A DNA stretch of 64,000 nucleotides from Escherichia phage UPEC06 (MW250786), one strand, 5' to 3'. Shown: positions 1 through 64,000, counted from the stretch's first letter. Notes: a model not told the origin generated them from the sequence alone. A program made the numbers and translations.

Positions 1-17
1 CTTGGAAATAACCTCAA

Positions 18-44
18 GGGAGCCTCGTGCTCCCTTTTCTTTTA
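18..44 (+). terminator. Rho-independent terminator closing an upstream + strand gene
   Basis: GGGAGC-ctcgt-GCTCCC hairpin followed by TTTTCTTTT; approx coords. Confidence 0.6.
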
Positions 45-102
45 ATTCTCTGGATATTATGATAAAATACGCTTATCGTCTAATTTTGGAGCAGGAGGAA
101 CA

Positions 103-4772: not shown

Positions 4773-5227
4773 TTACAGCCATAATATATGGCATTTGTTT
4801 CGTAATCCTTGCTACTCGAAAAGAGAGTGGAACAAAGATAATGGCTGGGCTTTGCCTAGCCTATCTCGTATTGGAGAACCTGATCCTTTGGTTCTTCTCT
4901 ACGCAACAATATTTCGACATCACTCTTTATTTTAATGTTCTCTGGACATTGGATTCGATACTGCTTTTCACTATGGGTTGTACAGTGAAAGGATTACGAC
5001 AAAAACTTATCGTATGCCTAAGTATTCCGTTCATGCTTATTCAAGTGTTTGCAATCCAATATCCAGAATTGTTCCCCTTATGGGTTTACGAATTCGCTCT
5101 TAGAGACGCTCACAAATATTTCATAGAAACCTTTGTGTTCGTTTATTCTTGGAAGGATAATACCGTACCGGAATGGATAAGGACAGCAGTGGTGATATTT
5201 CTGGTGCTCATTGCCCATATGGTATGA
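4769..5227 (+). CDS. multi-pass membrane protein
   Basis: 152 aa with 4-5 hydrophobic segments; ATGA overlap with upstream stop. Confidence 0.5.
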   Translation: MITAIIYGICFVILATRKESGTKIMAGLCLAYLVLENLILWFFSTQQYFDITLYFNVLWTLDSILLFTMGCTVKGLRQKLIVCLSIPFMLIQVFAIQYPELFPLWVYEFALRDAHKYFIETFVFVYSWKDNTVPEWIRTAVVIFLVLIAHMV

Positions 5228-57687: not shown

Positions 57688-58045
57688 CACTGAAAAAGGG
57701 TAAAATCATGTTAGAAAAAATTTTCACGGTTGTAATCTTAGGTTTAACATTCTTTGTAGGAGTAACTGCAACGATGGCTAATATGATTTTATCTTTCAAT
57801 GGTATTGGTTAAGAGGAAACAACAAATGAAAACTTTCAACGCAACAGCCTCAACAATTGGCTATATTATTACAGTACAGGCCGTGGATCTGGTAGCGGCG
57901 GCAAACAAGATTAAAAAAATGATTCCGACAGATAGCAAATTTTCCGTATGGGAAGTCAAATAATCCTTGACAGTAATTTATTATCTGGTAAAGTCTATTA
58001 TGTAGGGCGGCAATAGTGCCGCTGATAACCGAAGAGAAACAACAA

Positions 58046-58219
58046 ATGATCCCAACTATCTTTTACATATCTCGCAAAGGCATCAACATCCATTGGATGG
58101 AAGATTTAGAGCAAGCTATAGAGTATGCCCGTGGTCGTGTCGCTATCGGCGGCGTAGATATCACCGTTACCGATGAGAACGGGATCGAGTATTATAACAG
58201 CGAAGAAGAAGACTACTAA
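58046..58219 (+). CDS. hypothetical small protein
   Basis: Start set to ATG 58046 (MIPTIF) after promoter, GGCGGCAATAGTGCCGC hairpin and RBS. Confidence 0.45.
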   Translation: MIPTIFYISRKGINIHWMEDLEQAIEYARGRVAIGGVDITVTDENGIEYYNSEEEDY

Positions 58220-58263
58220 TCAACAGGGCGGCAAGAATGCCGCCATATAAAGGAATAAATGAA

Positions 58264-58650
58264 ATGAAACAAGAAATCATCAATACAATTATCGACGGTT
58301 ACAAAGAAGCCTTTATTTTCGCTGAATCAGCAACGGATCAGTACGGGGAGCATATCGATAACCTTGATCCTTATGACTTCTCCCAGGACGCAAACGACCG
58401 GATCGCCCAGGATGTAACAGCCTTCATTAATGCCAATATCGCCGTTATATCTGAGGCAATGTCTGACGGTGCAACAGCGATCCAGATAGGGAATGATTTA
58501 CATCTTACACGCAACGGTCACGGCGTAGGATTTTGGGATCGTCCTGAGATATACACCACGGATACGGGTAACCGTTTGAGTAATGCCGCTAAATTAATGC
58601 CTAACGTGTCAGCTTACATTGGGAAAGATAATCTGATTTATATTGAATAA
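58264..58650 (+). CDS. hypothetical protein
   Basis: Start set to ATG 58264 (MKQEII) after RBS; track start 58237 lies in loop of hairpin GGGCGGCAAGAATGCCGCC. Confidence 0.45.
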   Translation: MKQEIINTIIDGYKEAFIFAESATDQYGEHIDNLDPYDFSQDANDRIAQDVTAFINANIAVISEAMSDGATAIQIGNDLHLTRNGHGVGFWDRPEIYTTDTGNRLSNAAKLMPNVSAYIGKDNLIYIE

Positions 58651-58656
58651 AAAGTA

Positions 58657-58712
58657 TTGACAAGCTGAATCAACCTGATAAGATGTATCACATAGGGGCG
58701 ACAAGCGCCCCG
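58657..58712 (+). promoter_or_regulatory. promoter-stem-loop cassette (TTGACA-16-TAAGAT + GGGGCGACAAGCGCCCC hairpin)
   Basis: As other cassettes; approx coords. Confidence 0.55.
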
Positions 58713-58732
58713 CCTAACAGAGAGATAGAATC

Positions 58733-59011
58733 ATGACCATCGCCAAATTATCCGCTGAAGAAATCGAACAAGTGTTAACTACTAACCTGGAACAATGGAA
58801 ACGTGAGGCAGATATACAATCAGCACAATGGCTTAACGAGAAGTTAACACCGGATGATCTGAGTAAGATTATAGATCCTCAATTCTATGAAGATATTCAC
58901 GACACGGCGTTATCCGTTGAGGATGTACTCGATAAGCATTACATTGCTACTGATTTGCAGGTTTACGGGCGTAAAAACTTTATTACTATTCACGACATTT
59001 ACAATAACTAA
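58733..59011 (+). CDS. hypothetical protein, paralogue of 56981-57259 product
   Basis: See 56981-57259. Confidence 0.55.
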   Translation: MTIAKLSAEEIEQVLTTNLEQWKREADIQSAQWLNEKLTPDDLSKIIDPQFYEDIHDTALSVEDVLDKHYIATDLQVYGRKNFITIHDIYNN

Positions 59012-59046
59012 GGGCGGCAACGCCCTACAACTAAAAGGGTAATATT

Positions 59047-59241
59047 ATGACGTTAGCAACATGTACCGGATCAAAAATTGCTTGCTTTGAGTTTATGGAA
59101 GACTACCACACGACCGCAATCACTAACCAATATATTACAGTGATCACGCGTGACGGTATCGCCTGGCATGTTCCGGTTTATGATGGGGATACCTATGAAG
59201 TCACCGATAGCGACGGCAATACAGCTATCTTTGTTGTCTAA
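59047..59241 (+). CDS. hypothetical protein
   Basis: 64-aa ORF after GGGCGGCAACGCCC hairpin and RBS. Confidence 0.45.
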   Translation: MTLATCTGSKIACFEFMEDYHTTAITNQYITVITRDGIAWHVPVYDGDTYEVTDSDGNTAIFVV

Positions 59242-59254
59242 GGGGGGAAACACT

Positions 59255-59482
59255 ATGCACAATAACATCATTACCGATCGTGCCGCTACTATGCGCCCTG
59301 GCGATCGGGCACGTTTACAGATCGGCGCTTATCCGTTCCCTACTTATGACTTTTGCAAAGTAACCGCTATCGAAAACAATCCGTTCGAACCTGATACCGT
59401 GATCGTATGGTATGAAGGAAGAGGTAATAAATTTGAAGACATTTTGGGGCGAGATGAGTTATTGAATATTCTACGTTATTAA
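59255..59482 (+). CDS. hypothetical protein, paralogue of 57270-57533 product
   Basis: Start set to ATG 59255 (MHNNII) after AAGGGGGG RBS. Confidence 0.5.
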   Translation: MHNNIITDRAATMRPGDRARLQIGAYPFPTYDFCKVTAIENNPFEPDTVIVWYEGRGNKFEDILGRDELLNILRY

Positions 59483-59600
59483 TCGCCGTCTAACAGCCTT
59501 AAGCCTGTTAAGCTATGCAACCCCCTACCTTGTCCAATCGTCGCGCCCTGGTTTATGCTGGGGCGTTCTACGTTACAGCAAAATAATTTTAAAAATACGC

Positions 59601-59659
59601 TTGACGCTCGCCAGGTGAGCGGGTATATTTTATCACGTAGGGCGGCAATAGTGCCGCTC
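59601..59659 (+). promoter_or_regulatory. promoter-stem-loop cassette (TTGACG-17-TATATT + GGGCGGCAATAGTGCCGCT hairpin)
   Basis: As other cassettes; approx coords. Confidence 0.6.
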
Positions 59660-59679
59660 ACTGAAAAAGGTAAATCAGC

Positions 59680-59871
59680 ATGAAAACTATCACCTATCTG
59701 GAATCGAATAATAAATTTTTTGCCCCTGTTGATGAAATCATCGAAGCCCTGGCAAACGGTGAGGGTGTAAATGGCTTGCCTCATGCTCAATTAGTCGGAC
59801 TTGTCAAGGCAAACAAAGAATTAGCCTACTATGTAGAAAACTTTGAAACAGCAGTTATATTTACAAAATAA
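59680..59871 (+). CDS. hypothetical protein
   Basis: 63-aa ORF after cassette. Confidence 0.45.
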   Translation: MKTITYLESNNKFFAPVDEIIEALANGEGVNGLPHAQLVGLVKANKELAYYVENFETAVIFTK

Positions 59872-59951
59872 AGGTTGTATTCATTCCGCAACTGGTTTAT
59901 ATTATTTGTGTAGGGCGGCAATAGTGCCGCTCACTGACTGGAGCTATCATT

Positions 59952-60353
59952 ATGGCCTTTACAATCACCTCTTACACTGACGTTGCCAACATTGCTAAAA
60001 CTTTCGGCCCTGAAGCCCTTAAGTATGCGGTATCCAATGGTAAACTAACGAAAGAGCAATGTTACCTGATTGGAAGCTGTAAACGTTGGGCGGCATCTCG
60101 TAACATCGAGATTGAAAACGTAAATGATGGTAACATCGAGTATAGCGTTGATGCAGTATTCAAGGCCGTGTATTTGGGCGGTATCTATAATACCAACCTT
60201 AATGATGTGCGTATCGTTCGCACTGGTTTTGGGGCTTATGATGTTCCAGTTCGCGAAGCTATGGAAAAAGGTTATATTAATCCAGCTATTTTAAGTATGA
60301 TCATGACTGAGGCCAAAGAACGTAACGAAGTACGGGCCATCCTGGGCCTGTAA
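59952..60353 (+). CDS. hypothetical protein
   Basis: 133-aa ORF after GTAGGGCGGCAATAGTGCCGCTCACTGA element. Confidence 0.5.
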   Translation: MAFTITSYTDVANIAKTFGPEALKYAVSNGKLTKEQCYLIGSCKRWAASRNIEIENVNDGNIEYSVDAVFKAVYLGGIYNTNLNDVRIVRTGFGAYDVPVREAMEKGYINPAILSMIMTEAKERNEVRAILGL

Positions 60354-60451
60354 TGAAATATTAACAGAAAACTATTGACACGGATCGTCAATATGCTAAT
60401 ATTTATCACGTAGGGCGGCAATGGTGCAGCCCACTGGAAAAGGTAAAAATC

Positions 60452-60697
60452 ATGTACCAGACAACTAAAATTGGCAATATCTATCACGATCCTAAAAACT
60501 CACGCGGTACAGCCTGGATCAAGATGCCCAACAACGTTTGGTACTATGCATTAAAAGGCAATACCTTGATGGGCAATCGTTGGAAGTGGATTAAAGAAAA
60601 TAACAACATTATTAACGATGAAAAAATCCAAGAAATGGTAGCAACGGGTAAGGTTGTAATGCAAGAAAACACCGACCGCCTTACTCGTCAATTTTAA
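60452..60697 (+). CDS. hypothetical protein
   Basis: 81-aa ORF after TTGACA promoter and degenerate hairpin. Confidence 0.45.
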   Translation: MYQTTKIGNIYHDPKNSRGTAWIKMPNNVWYYALKGNTLMGNRWKWIKENNNIINDEKIQEMVATGKVVMQENTDRLTRQF

Positions 60698-60706
60698 TAT
60701 CAATAA

Positions 60707-60722
60707 GGGGCGGCAACGCCCC
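60707..60722 (+). other. intercistronic stem-loop with GNRA-type loop (GGGGCG-GCAA-CGCCCC)
   Basis: 6-bp GC stem, GCAA tetraloop, between ORFs and upstream of RBS. Confidence 0.5.
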
Positions 60723-60745
60723 ACCTCGACCAAAGAGAAACAATA

Positions 60746-60952
60746 ATGAGTATTGCAGCGATTAGCTCATCCGACATTAAAAAGGCTTTATCTGTGTTGC
60801 GCTATCACCACCACAGGAAAGTAATCAACGATGAGAGCTATCTAGATTCATCGTTAGAAAGCGATACGTTGGAAGCCATTTCAAAATTATCCGATTTACA
60901 TAAACGCATGACCGAAAGCAACCGATCCGACTTCATAGGGGGCGAAATATGA
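60746..60952 (+). CDS. hypothetical protein
   Basis: 68-aa ORF. Confidence 0.45.
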   Translation: MSIAAISSSDIKKALSVLRYHHHRKVINDESYLDSSLESDTLEAISKLSDLHKRMTESNRSDFIGGEI

Positions 60953-61209
60953 GCATTGCAATGTTAATTAATGCGGTAGAAGAGGCAAAAGCATTAAAGC
61001 TATGTGTTGAACTGATTGATCAACCAGGCGGCGATCTCCTTGTCCAAATTTATCCCCAAAAGGATTATTCTGGCGCTTATAGTTGGTGCTACTCTGACAC
61101 GTTCGGACAAGTAGACATTAAAGCAATAACATCGTTTATCAACAGGGCCATACTTGAGCAAACGATAGAGATTAACGGAATGTTAAAAACACCCTGGCAC
61201 ATTTACTAA
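60949..61209 (+). CDS. hypothetical protein
   Basis: 86-aa ORF, ATGA overlap. Confidence 0.45.
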   Translation: MSIAMLINAVEEAKALKLCVELIDQPGGDLLVQIYPQKDYSGAYSWCYSDTFGQVDIKAITSFINRAILEQTIEINGMLKTPWHIY

Positions 61210-61216
61210 GTTCGAT

Positions 61217-61246
61217 AAAAGGGCTTGACTTGTTCGGCCCTTTTTT
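61217..61246 (+). terminator. Rho-independent terminator
   Basis: AGGGC-loop-GCCCT stem followed by TTTTTT. Confidence 0.55.
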
Positions 61247-61385
61247 GCTATTCTTATCAAACGGGCGGCAACTGGGGACAGGGGAAGGTAATCACCGGAA
61301 GACTTTGGCATATACTGATAGTAAATAACTATTAATACTCACCAAAAATAAAATAAAATTTATTAAATCTTTACAATTCTACGTA

Positions 61386-61680
61386 TTGACACCGGATCAC
61401 CGTTATATTATTATTTATCTCGTAGGGCAGCGAAGCAGTGATGCAAAGTAGTTACTCTATGATGTAAGTTCTGAGAAGTCGAATCCGATAAAGTATCAGA
61501 AAGTTTCTAAGTTTTCGAATCGTCCAGATGAAAAAGGCTGGCAAGTGTTGAGAAAGGGCACGTTGAGTAAGTCCCGAAAAGGGGCGCTCTTAGACACCTT
61601 CTACTGAGATTGCGATCAAAGTGTTAAACTGTGAGAAACAAAAAGAGTACCAGGAAAGAAAAAAAAAAGTTAAAAAGATT
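61386..61680 (+). other. promoter-driven non-coding leader / candidate small RNA locus
   Basis: TTGACA-N17-TATTAT promoter-like pair, then ~250 nt with no ORF above ~10 codons before the next promoter at ~61684. Confidence 0.3.
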
Positions 61681-61755
61681 ATTGACACAAAAGTAAGTTT
61701 TGTACTATTATCTATCTCGTAGGGCAAACATTCAAAACATTAAAAAGGGTACAAA

Positions 61756-62031
61756 ATGTTACAGCTTAACGCTAAATTAGACAAAGAAATCACTGAGTTT
61801 TGGGATATGGTAGTAGCTACAGATGTAGACGGTGTAGCAAGTCCTTACCTCAATAACATCGAGTATCACAATGTTGCAGCTATGAATGCAGAATATGCAG
61901 AAGAAGGCGGCGCGGATAAGTTTGCTAAAAGCAACGGTTTCACTGATGCTAATGATATGATGCAATCAGTATTGTGGCAAGCCCAGGAAGATTTTGAAGA
62001 AAAAACACTTGAATTCGCCAGACGTTCATAA
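61756..62031 (+). CDS. hypothetical acidic protein
   Basis: 91-aa ORF after TTGACA-N-TATTAT promoter-like pair. Confidence 0.5.
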   Translation: MLQLNAKLDKEITEFWDMVVATDVDGVASPYLNNIEYHNVAAMNAEYAEEGGADKFAKSNGFTDANDMMQSVLWQAQEDFEEKTLEFARRS

Positions 62032-62086
62032 TAGAATAATCAAACGGGCCGAGAGGCCCACTAACTGACCTAACAGGATTAATATC

Positions 62087-62356
62087 ATGAATCGCATCGA
62101 TCAGCTTAAAGTAGTTCAGCATATGGCTTACCGTATCCTTGAAGTCCAGAAGGGTAGCAAAAAAGAAGTATGCGAGAAAGCGTACAAGGTATTCAGCCAT
62201 AAATCTGACGATTGGAAATTACAGAAAGTTAAAAAGGCCGATATCCTGGGCTACCTTGAGGATGAGATCCGCCTTGCGGAGCAAAAACAGATTCGTCGTG
62301 ATGAGGCAGAACATAACCAGGCCTGGCAGGAGTGGTTTAAAGGGTATACTAAGTAA
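62087..62356 (+). CDS. hypothetical protein
   Basis: 89-aa ORF with RBS. Confidence 0.5.
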   Translation: MNRIDQLKVVQHMAYRILEVQKGSKKEVCEKAYKVFSHKSDDWKLQKVKKADILGYLEDEIRLAEQKQIRRDEAEHNQAWQEWFKGYTK

Positions 62357-62487
62357 TACTAAAACAGGGGCCATATGGCCCCTTTGTAAATATCCAATTA
62401 ATTTACAATTCTCCCTATTGACAGGCTAGTCAGTTTTGCACTATAGTTAAGTTCCTGGCAGCAAACAACAAAACAAAGGACAACAGC

Positions 62488-62907
62488 ATGAACATCAAAT
62501 CAAATAATCCGGCATACTCTTTCGATAACGCTTTTTGTCACGGTAGCGCCGCCAAAGGTTTTGAAATTGATGGTAAACTGGTTATCGTCAATGTTGATGG
62601 GGAAGAGGTTGCAGTTTATCCAGTGGCAGACGTTAAAAGCCGTTTACAGTGCCGCATGGACGTTAACGAATATCGCCTTGATCCGGTTCGTGTAGTTGCC
62701 TTAGTCCTGGAAGAAGAAATTAAAGCAATGCAGCATAGCAACAAGTTTATCGGTGATGCACAGGACAACATGAAAGTAAGCCGCCACAAAGTTAATGAAG
62801 CACTGAAAGATTTTGGCTTTAAAGACCTAGTTATTAAACGTGATGAAAAATTCCGCTTTCGTAATGATCTGGCAAATCGCTACTATGAAATCTATGAAGC
62901 ACTTTAA
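62488..62907 (+). CDS. hypothetical protein
   Basis: 139-aa ORF after TTGACA promoter-like site. Confidence 0.5.
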   Translation: MNIKSNNPAYSFDNAFCHGSAAKGFEIDGKLVIVNVDGEEVAVYPVADVKSRLQCRMDVNEYRLDPVRVVALVLEEEIKAMQHSNKFIGDAQDNMKVSRHKVNEALKDFGFKDLVIKRDEKFRFRNDLANRYYEIYEAL

Positions 62908-62920
62908 GAGGTAAGACAAC

Positions 62921-62947
62921 AAAGGGCCGCTATTGCGGCCTTTATTA
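62921..62947 (+). terminator. Rho-independent terminator ending the small-ORF array
   Basis: AAAGGGCCGC-tatt-GCGGCCTTT hairpin plus TTTATTAT. Confidence 0.65.
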
Positions 62948-63151
62948 TATCCATCGGCGTGACTCTCCCAACTCTATTAATCCCCTCCCTCATTTGGATC
63001 ATCCTACTCTATCCAACCCTTCTAACTTACTTTACCCATCAATCTAATCAGCTTCCTGAATCTCTCCTATAAAAATCAAAACTAACCTGATAGCTTACCA
63101 CAACAAAACACACAAAGAAAGAACTATTTTGCCCACAAAGAAAGCAGTTTT

Positions 63152-63790
63152 AAAGAGATACCATTGCCAGAGTATGGAGGTGGCGCGACCGTAGGGAGCG
63201 ACACTATAAAACGAGTATACCCCTCCTACCGCTATGCGGTCATCGGTGATAACCGATAACATACTGTTATCTGTTCTCTTCGTTTCCTCGTTTTATAGTG
63301 TCTACTTATAGTAATCTTTTATCCTTTGTCAATACATTATCGAAGATAATATTGAATTATTTAATGCTTTGTTAGTAATTATTTATGCATGGATACTGAT
63401 TATGTATGCAATAAGGATGCAATGGGAAGGCCGTTAGTGTGACCACACAAAGAGGCTGTAGGGTACACAAAGAGGCCGTAAAAGGCTGTATTTGCCCACA
63501 GAATGAACAAGTAAGCAGGGCGGTACGCCAGTTTGCTAGACAAAACTCTCTTCTCTCTTCTCTCCCCAAATAAATTTTTTCTTGCTTTTATTGCCAGAGT
63601 ATGGCGGGGCGCTCAGGCTATTGATGGCCCTGATGGAGTCGCTCCTGCACAGTTGGGATAGTTCATCGTTGGATAGTCACAAGTTGGTATTATTCTTCCC
63701 ACTAGTTGGAACAGGCCAGAACTGGCGGGGCTTGGAGTCGCTCCACTTGTTGGGCGGAAGAAGGGCGCTTGCAGTGCGTATAAGTTGTAT
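63152..63790. repeat. dispersed imperfect repeats in terminal non-coding region
   Basis: ATTGCCAGAGTATGG at ~63152 and ~63590 with a variant GCCAGAACTGGCGGGG at ~63713; GGAGTCGCTCC x2; CACAAAGAGGCYGTA x2 at ~63445-63480. Confidence 0.4.
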
Positions 63791-64000
63791 TATGTTAAAT
63801 GCAGATCGAAATCGGTATTCTAAATCAGATTCAGAAGTCAATAGAAATCTTTAACTTTATTGTTGGGGTAGCACAACATTTTTCTTGACAAGTCGAATCA
63901 AAGATGTATTGCGGATTGAAAATAAATGAAGATAATGCTTGACTTCTTGGATATTTTGAAAACATCGGACCCCCTCTCCCTCCCCCACGGTCGCCGTGCC

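Follow-up and report, generated by a model that had tools for sequence, protein, structure and literature searches.

The put RNA of phage HK022 brings about antitermination without any phage protein (PMC9378689). Here we describe a candidate RNA of comparable placement in Escherichia phage UPEC06 (MW250786). It occupies positions 61425–61640, plus strand, of a 64,000-nt stretch of the phage DNA (the window; positions are counted from its first letter), and sequence comparisons point to a structured non-coding RNA, conserved and strand-specific, with its start a few bases past a predicted transcription start. As with put, a folded RNA lies immediately behind an early sigma70 promoter at the start of a long operon, and put matches it in position, orientation and the host-only requirement proposed below. 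Put acts in cis on RNA polymerase, through the β′ zinc-binding domain and with no need of protein factors; of this description only the promoter-proximal placement is shared. However, put is about 70 nt long and has two stems, whereas the UPEC06 RNA is about 220 nt long, has at least six modules, and would have a role in elongation only by inference. A covariance model of the 5′ domain of the RNA (R1) argues against homology to put, its best score against the whole HK022 genome being 8.8 bits (E 1.5). Structured leader RNAs behind phage promoters are a known kind of element; we did not find the architecture and apparent spread of this RNA family described.

The nut site of phage lambda is a second relative in form. 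Within the UPEC06 RNA, UCCC-GAAAA-GGGG stands directly before CGCUCUUAGACA, and CGCUCUUA is the lambda boxA. GAAAA is the loop of lambda nutR boxB; the UPEC06 hairpin (61572–61584), with its GAAAA loop, fits in shape the boxB form of a hairpin with a GNRA-like pentaloop, and binding is putative. The order in the window, hairpin and then boxA-like sequence, is the reverse of that in lambda and is the order of the ribosomal RNA operon (rrn) leaders. An N-like arginine-rich N-terminus was not seen by eye in translations of the downstream open reading frames (ORFs), and no systematic search for N was made. SP6-like members of the family also resemble the rrn leaders, ending in a perfect rrn boxA, UGCUCUUUAACAA. 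The early leader of T7 (promoters A1–A3, boxA and the R0.3 RNase III site) is alike in being a long untranslated leader behind strong host promoters, located at the genome end that enters first. At T7 812–824 (L028) we noticed an rrn-type boxA, CGCUCUUUAACAA, between promoter A3 and gene 0.3, which is unannotated in the record; it is identical to the boxA of the SP6-like leaders and lies at the equivalent position. T7 differs in that the folded RNA is absent, R1 having no match there, and we know of no function of the T7 leader fragments. T4-type phages, finally, carry mobile early promoter cassettes (PeSL). As in these, repeated promoter units in the UPEC06 early array flank small cargo that is exchanged between related phages; in the present case a structured RNA takes the place of an ORF as cargo, and unrelated phage families have it in common.

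Fold, strand and coding potential of the RNA

The region 61425–61640 (plus strand) very probably specifies a non-coding RNA with a defined fold, which host sigma70 RNA polymerase transcribes from P1 (61386–61414) and which belongs to a modular family that we found nowhere described. The features of the locus are as follows.

61386–61414, plus strand: promoter P1, sigma70-type, with TTGACA (61386–61391), a 17-nt spacer and TATTAT (61409–61414)
61417–61429, plus strand: initial transcribed sequence ATCTCGTAGGGCA, conserved, part of the promoter unit
61429–61453, plus strand: hairpin M0, AGC-GAA-GCA-GUGA-UGC-AAAGUA-GUU, with a GNRA loop and a GAA/AAGUA internal loop
61454–61470, plus strand: linker M1, with a semi-conserved (G)UAGUAAG-like motif taken from the alignment, GAUGUAAGU in the window
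61470–61500, plus strand: nested hairpin M2, UCUGA-GAA-GUCG-AAUC-CGAU-AAAGUA-UCAGA, with the same GAA/AAGUA internal loop as M0
61501–61523, plus strand: linker holding a second copy of UCGAAUCG
61524–61541, plus strand: hairpin M4, CCAG-AUGAAAAAGG-CUGG, with a conserved 10-nt loop
61545–61561, plus strand: M5, stem S1 (61545–61547 with 61559–61561), GUG/CAC around the loop UUGAGAAAGGG
61562–61596, plus strand: 35-nt insert, consisting of GUUGAGUAAG, the hairpin (G)UCCC-GAAAA-GGGG(C) at 61572–61584 and CGCUCUUAGACA at 61585–61596
61597–61602, plus strand: CCUUCU, 3′ strand of S2, a candidate pseudoknot with AG(A)AAGG (61551–61557) inside the S1 loop
61603–61622, plus strand: hairpin M6, ACU-GA-GAU-UGCG-AUC-AA-AGU, with a UNCG-type loop
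61626–61639, plus strand: M7, AAACUGUGAGAAAC, the final conserved segment
61640–61681, plus strand: purine-only tail of AAG/AAA repeats that includes an A-run and abuts the −35 element of P2
61682–61711, plus strand: promoter P2, second copy of the promoter unit, TTGACA-18-TATTAT, before ORF 61756–62031

Covariation among homologues supports the stems. In the 5′ domain (M0–M2; 19 sequences from 6 lineages), 88% of cells are paired and 17 of the 18 pairs show compensatory changes; slid controls are paired at 23–42%, and the covariation score of 0.757 compares with 0.27 in shuffles, controls that overstate significance since the sequences are related. M2 alone (15 sequences) has 96.3% of its cells paired and compensatory changes at 9 of 9 pairs, and sliding one partner by 1–3 columns lowers the pairing to 22–46%. 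M4 and S1 (10 sequences) are 100% paired, with compensatory changes at 5 of 7 pairs: the M4 stem reads CCAG/CUGG, CCGG/CCGG or CUAG/CUAG, and all three pairs of S1 covary through six variants (GUG/CAC, ACG/CGU, AGG/CCU, GGG/CCU, CGG/CCG and CGA/UCG). This covariation of 3′-domain stems is seen across the SP6-like and window-like groups, and M6 and the insert hairpin keep their shape despite differing sequences. We assign the structure to the plus strand because its many G-U pairs would become A-C mismatches if the other strand were transcribed. In the window R1 has a single match, at 61425–61502 (83.2 bits, E 3e-19, full model matched), starting 11 nt after the end of P1; it scores 62–87 bits in other phage families and has no match in the related phage Nernie.

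The invariant parts of the RNA are unpaired: GAA against (N)AAGUA in both 5′ hairpins, the GNRA, AAUC and M4 loops, and UUGAGNAAGGG...CCUUCU. Conservation of this kind is characteristic of RNAs that offer a defined binding surface to some partner. As a sequence pattern only, the invariant GAA opposite (N)AAGUA resembles the bulged-G (loop E/sarcin-ricin) and UAA/GAN motifs, and it matches the AGUA/GAA consensus of the former. Likenesses of M4 to a segment of RNase P RNA and of M2 to the tRNA T-arm are presumably due to chance.

Around these constant parts the modules vary. In the K1-ULIP33 group the inner stem of M0 changes from GCA/UGC to GUG/CAC and its loop from GUGA to GCGA, which is still GNRA. 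In the M4 loop, covariation links the first base to the last (A..G with G..A). The 3′ domain is complete in the window, with M4, S1 carrying the UUGAGNAAGGG loop, CCUUCU, M6 and M7 all in order at 61524–61639; CCUUCU is invariant across all 3′-domain members, whether the spacer before it is 6 nt or 35 nt. The 35-nt insert occurs only in the versions from Vequintavirinae, Seuratvirus and Drexlerviridae; its hairpin stem covaries (UCUC/GAGG, CUCCC/GGGGG), and its loop is GAANA, in which only the fourth base varies (GAACA and GAAUA in homologues). The architecture of M6 recurs with different stems in Era103, the K1-ULIP33 group, SA80RD, SLUR75, Rtp and NC29, and the counterparts of M7 are CUACACUGUGAAUCAC in SP6-like and CUAUCUUGUGAAACAU in phiEco32-like phages. 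An alternative helix between GGAAGGUG and CACCUUCU was dropped, as, read by eye, it pairs only in Seuratvirus.

Other results lend this fold no support in some parts. The folding energy is no better than that of shuffled sequence (z = 0.03 on the plus and 0.35 on the minus strand), which we count neither for nor against it. Within Vequintavirinae, Seuratvirus and Drexlerviridae the 3′ domain is so conserved that just 3 of 21 pairs covary. The S2 pseudoknot and an outer GAG/CUC stem never vary and so show no covariation; their pairing is a proposal.

About 330 nt behind P1 lack a conserved ORF. The preliminary description of the stretch had found no ORF longer than about 10 codons, which is right for ATG starts (a single frame of 7 codons, 61527–61550) and wrong for GTG and TTG starts, from which the plus strand has ORFs of 20–33 codons at 61545–61607, 61621–61722 and 61631–61696, none of them conserved. 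One could suppose that one of these frames, the minus-strand ORF described next or a DNA-level binding or recombination site is what has been maintained. In its favour, the public records of A5-4 and A7_1 annotate minus-strand coding sequences (CDSs) over the tail (A54_101, L001 3392–3535, in A5-4; A71_258, L011 1688–1831, in A7_1), covering the T-run and P2, and several lineages have the 7-codon frame, whose stop is the UGA of GUUGAG. However, the minus-strand ORF is out of frame in LTH01, A73 and the window, and both calls are probably spurious, a point of use for annotation. The GTG frame 61545–61607 (20 codons) is broken in A5-4, A7_1 and A73 by an in-frame TGA, a change that preserves the overlapping hairpin as a U-G pair, and the 7-codon frame is stopped by a UAG at codon 3 in Era103 and lacks a Shine-Dalgarno sequence in the window. 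The finding named beforehand as telling against an RNA, a small ORF conserved among homologues together with a ribosome-binding site, did not emerge: the candidate ORFs are broken or shifted. Together with the compensatory changes and G-U pairs specific to a plus-strand RNA, this leaves a coding or DNA-level element as a most improbable explanation.

Distribution among phage lineages

The window covers the early-gene region of an rV5-like myovirus (a Vequintavirinae coliphage), and 61200–61800 is 90–93% identical to four other Vequintavirinae coliphages (A5-4, A7_1, A73 and vB_EcoM-LTH01), in which the matching stretch sits within an array of small plus-strand genes of unknown function. An 88-nt core (61515–61602), opened by the final 9 nt of the linker before M4 (61515–61523), is common to Seuratvirus and Drexlerviridae: it is 82–94% identical to unannotated DNA of these unrelated siphoviruses, namely three Seuratvirus (SA80RD, SLUR75 and WildeMaa) and four Drexlerviridae (Rtp, ZL19, PH1062 and BUCT-XGG-1), where it closely follows a sigma70-like promoter and is oriented towards early genes. 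Among 50,697 phage records, the similarity searches found it in 5 Vequintavirinae, 3 Seuratvirus and 4 distinct Drexlerviridae phages. When the flanks were read, the whole transcript proved homologous, module by module, to leaders in further groups: SP6-like Autographiviridae (Era103, K1-ULIP33, KL01, Reminis, F4M1D, MR4 and IMG/VR contigs), phiEco32-like phages (KarlSchell, SU7, MN03, XT phages and three metagenome contigs), Grimontviridae (SE131, pSal-SNUABM-01 and 7-11) and the microvirus NC29. The RNA family, as judged from these alignments, is spread over seven phage lineages of enterobacterial viruses whose hosts are Escherichia, Salmonella, Klebsiella and Erwinia, and its carriers span 145-kb myoviruses to a 6-kb single-stranded-DNA microvirus.

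The placement of the element is the same throughout. In all lineages it begins within about 0–15 nt of the start predicted for a sigma70-type promoter, in sense orientation and facing downstream genes, and the copies belong to the early-gene region, whether at its left end or, where that region is divergent, a little way inside it. The 5′ domain is the part common to nearly all lineages. That it begins a few nucleotides from the predicted 5′ end in every lineage, and that it precedes highly expressed operons (gene D of the microvirus, early genes of the T7 group), would suit a 5′ stabiliser or processing element, one that protects the mRNA from 5′-end-dependent decay (RNase E, RppH) or directs processing and so raises downstream gene expression. 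Yet simple 5′ hairpins are enough for protection, and such a role explains neither the elaborate 3′ domain nor loops (GAA, AAGUA, GNRA and AAUC) that stay invariant across seven lineages while the stems change; we regard it as improbable.

The copy in NC29 (Escherichia phage, NC_007827; 6,259 nt, Bullavirinae) occupies the C–D intergenic region (2440–2712); a sigma70-like promoter at the end of gene C precedes it, and gene D follows. R1 scores 68.6 bits at 2486–2564, and a phiEco32-type 3′ domain, M6 and M7 follow. NC29 is the sole microvirus with the RNA in the phage collection, and its closest relatives (75–79% identity) are phiEco32-like podoviruses. A non-coding module seems here to have crossed from one virus realm to another; if so, such a module has moved between seven phage lineages, including from Duplodnaviria to Monodnaviria.

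Searches of further collections gave little. With Rfam 15 the window had no match at the gathering threshold, 61200–61800 at E ≤10 had chance matches only (e.g., a snoRNA; STnc320, E 0.88, is the hairpin of the upstream terminator described below), and 13 homologous loci at E ≤1 had nothing relevant. ARAGORN found no tRNA or tmRNA gene in the window. The 88-nt core had no match in E. coli genomes and plasmids, and two structural patterns had none in 100,044 species-representative bacterial and archaeal genomes. In JGI metagenomes the core pattern gave 0 matches and the M0 pattern 14, of which only 3 are real (phiEco32-like contigs) and the rest chance; IMG/VR gave few matches. A literature search by sequence strings and topics did not turn up the element, with the limit that a catalogue of >10,000 viral RNAs could not be compared motif by motif (PMC10690425).

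Possible action on the host elongation complex

The RNA probably does something general with host machinery. The reading that we tentatively favour, while holding it at somewhat below even chances, is that of a cis-acting, put-like or nut-like element which modifies the host RNA polymerase transcribing it. The nascent RNA would fold on leaving the polymerase and bind the host elongation complex that is transcribing it, with or without a host factor as intermediary; the binding surfaces would be the GAA/AAGUA internal loops of M0 and M2, the GNRA loop, the 10-nt loop of M4 and the possible pseudoknot. The bound polymerase would then resist pausing and termination and read through downstream terminators, part of the family would act jointly with a boxA/Nus site, and host components alone would suffice. 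The partner is taken to be a host component because unrelated phages of four host genera and a microvirus carry the RNA, and the host-only requirement is proposed because NC29, one of these carriers, encodes no transcription factor.

Three observations point to the elongation complex: the RNA always stands at the very start of a transcript from a host-polymerase promoter, with no terminator after it in the window or in the homologues read; a boxA follows it in SP6-like leaders, as one stands at the equivalent place in T7; and in phage 7-11, described below, it lies behind promoters that give long early transcripts. The leader is also 63.5% purine and 14% C, in the 99.7th percentile of the window, and a purine-rich, C-poor composition is the opposite of a Rho loading site. 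The preliminary description had suggested a small RNA or a long leader. The conserved, strand-specific structure is in line with this, and we lean to a leader because no intrinsic terminator follows the element and the homologues that were read run on into downstream genes. A terminator-bounded bacterial small RNA differs in this respect: the plus strand of 61421–61756 has no terminator-like site, and none lies between the RNA and the following genes in homologues whose downstream sequence was read.

Salmonella phage 7-11 provides a case with validated promoters. R1 scores 77 bits at record positions 14–91 (minus strand), downstream of the predicted promoters "in front of gene 151", of which there are three. 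Primer extension 5 min after infection validated two of them; the early transcripts are long and polycistronic and cover almost half of the genome, for which an antitermination strategy "that remains to be defined" is expected by those who described them (PMC8948821). If the proposed action on elongation is correct, the RNA is a concrete candidate for the strategy that these authors left undefined (PMC8948821), might explain the long untranslated early leaders of SP6-like phages, and would, as a widely shared and elaborate RNA, join the short list of host-reprogramming phage leader RNAs (nut, put). Its function can be tested directly in obtainable carriers, namely BASEL Bas23 WildeMaa, Bas89 KarlSchell, Rtp, Era103, 7-11 and NC29. 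In 7-11 (L050 1–260 and L049 1865–2917, minus strand) and SE131 (L013), about 1.1 kb without an annotated gene separates the 5′ domain of the RNA from the first early gene (gene 151); this very long untranslated leader, in which Rfam has no match, may hold further RNA elements.

The nut-like insert of the window is a lead, not a finding. CGCUCUUA (61585–61592) is identical to lambda boxA at 8 of 8 positions, exactly so in the window copy only; all five Vequintavirinae copies have at most one mismatch, for which the background is 2.9% per 274 nt. The other Vequintavirinae copies read CGCUCCUA, and a structural study of NusB-NusE-boxA leads one to expect that a pyrimidine transition at boxA position 6 is tolerated (PMC3177189). 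In Seuratvirus and Drexlerviridae the boxA-like sequence has decayed (CGCUCCAA, CCUCCAA, ACUCCCA), with transversions among others at positions reported not to tolerate them (PMC3177189). By chance the exact 8-mer is expected about twice per 64-kb window, and a second copy lies at 5095. The best window match to the rrn boxA is GCUCUUAGACA (9 of 11 positions), a score reached by 6.6% of background 274-nt windows. Among SP6-like leaders, 10 of 11 have an rrn-type boxA, perfect or nearly so, after the RNA, and a minimal SP6-like variant (L045) consists of the 5′ domain and boxA only.

Several observations weigh against an action on elongation. As a universal companion of the RNA, boxA was rejected: the leaders of Seuratvirus, Drexlerviridae, phiEco32-like phages and Grimontviridae are without it, and T7 has boxA without the folded RNA. 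Transcription of the window copy and an effect on elongation are both inferred. The window and Rtp-like phages have a second promoter between the RNA and the first gene, and because of it the downstream genes would be independent of RNA-bearing transcripts. The element is present in only 5 Vequintavirinae genomes, compared with >100 records for its promoter unit, which is the pattern of an accessory cargo. Finally, modules have been swapped between lineages and 3′ domains differ, and the RNA family may lack one single function.

The combination of multiple helices, conserved nucleotides outside them, a GNRA loop and perhaps a pseudoknot is also what a riboswitch-like sensor might show, an RNA that binds a small molecule or ion and adjusts the downstream operon. 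A further point in its favour comes from Seuratvirus (L007 and L008 1555–1620; L003 2575–2625), where a second CCGG a few bases beyond M6 (GACCUUCCGGG) offers its 3′ CCGG strand an alternative partner, giving two possible, mutually exclusive hairpins and hence a possible switch. On the other hand, no terminator or platform for sequestering a ribosome-binding site is visible, no Rfam riboswitch matches, and gain and loss of modules between lineages is unusual for a ligand pocket. We consider a sensor very unlikely, and an RNA acting on the elongation complex remains the reading that we prefer.

The promoter cassette and its surroundings

The promoter of the RNA belongs to a recurrent unit. P1 agrees with the sigma70 consensus at 11 of 12 positions and is one of only three such sites within 58000–64000; from it we place the transcription start at about 61421–61424. 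P1 is more than a chance match because its −10 hexamer and initial transcribed sequence (TATNTATCTCGTAGGGCA) occur three times in the window (60400, 61412 and 61709) against 0.11 expected, and because the first 50 nt of the unit are 88–96% identical in >100 phage records, from Vequintavirinae and phAPEC8-like phages. The copies of the unit in the window, each with the conserved initial transcribed sequence (A)TCTCGTAGGGCA, lie at 60375–60417, 61386–61429 and 61682–61726. The promoter unit thus has the look of a mobile regulatory cassette, with cargo being swapped around it. Both promoters of the preliminary description were thus recovered, the second serving ORF 61756–62031, which matches phrog_7287; the ORFs neighbouring the element match PHROG families of unknown function. 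The GC-richer segment (61557–61589) and the terminal A-run (61660–61669) that it reported are likewise present.

It had further singled out this cassette as the only one without obvious coding cargo, for which phage Nernie provides a comparison. There a P1-type unit directly precedes and drives a small CDS; therefore the cassette in the window truly carries a different cargo. In the window, a mobile promoter cassette with the element as its cargo has been inserted into the early array, with a small-ORF cassette on either side. This arrangement bears on a trans-acting RNA, which would be released by host RNases or accumulate and titrate a host factor (such as Hfq, a Nus factor or a protein of defence or RNA metabolism), making it the RNA equivalent of the small early proteins of neighbouring cassettes. 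Its location in the early-gene region, its carriage as a promoter-plus-RNA cassette whose unit drives an ORF in Nernie, its sporadic and rare occurrence as an accessory within each family, the second promoter after it in the window and Rtp, its acquisition by a 6-kb microvirus and conserved loops that imply a specific partner would all suit such a role, as would the purine (AAG)n tail, which resembles the ARN motifs of the Hfq distal face. However, no terminator or recognisable processing site marks a 3′ end in the window or the homologues read, the SP6-like, phiEco32-like, Grimontviridae and NC29 copies are merely the 5′ part of the first mRNA, and no candidate target was found. We regard titration in trans, the chief rival of the cis-acting element, as rather unlikely. 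Doubtful to a similar degree is a self-contained, host-only RNA device of a hitherto undescribed type, traded as a promoter-plus-RNA cassette among unrelated viruses, be it a processive antiterminator made of RNA alone and unrelated to put or a decoy that neutralises a host factor.

The tail between M7 and P2 differs in length by insertions and deletions among the five Vequintavirinae copies, and because of this variation around it the A-run probably lies outside the folded RNA. The tail may be an UP element of P2 or an (ARN)n-type protein-binding (Hfq-binding) tract. Copies in Drexlerviridae and Seuratvirus also have A/G-rich sequence after M6.

Two minor observations concern the rest of the window. 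The cassette upstream ends at 61222–61250 in an apparent plus-strand terminator (AAAAGGGC...GCCCUUUUUU), which the terminator scan missed owing to its 12-nt loop. At the other end, 62950–64000 holds only short overlapping ORFs on both strands (the longest has 90 codons and a TTG start) and may be another non-coding or poorly coding region.

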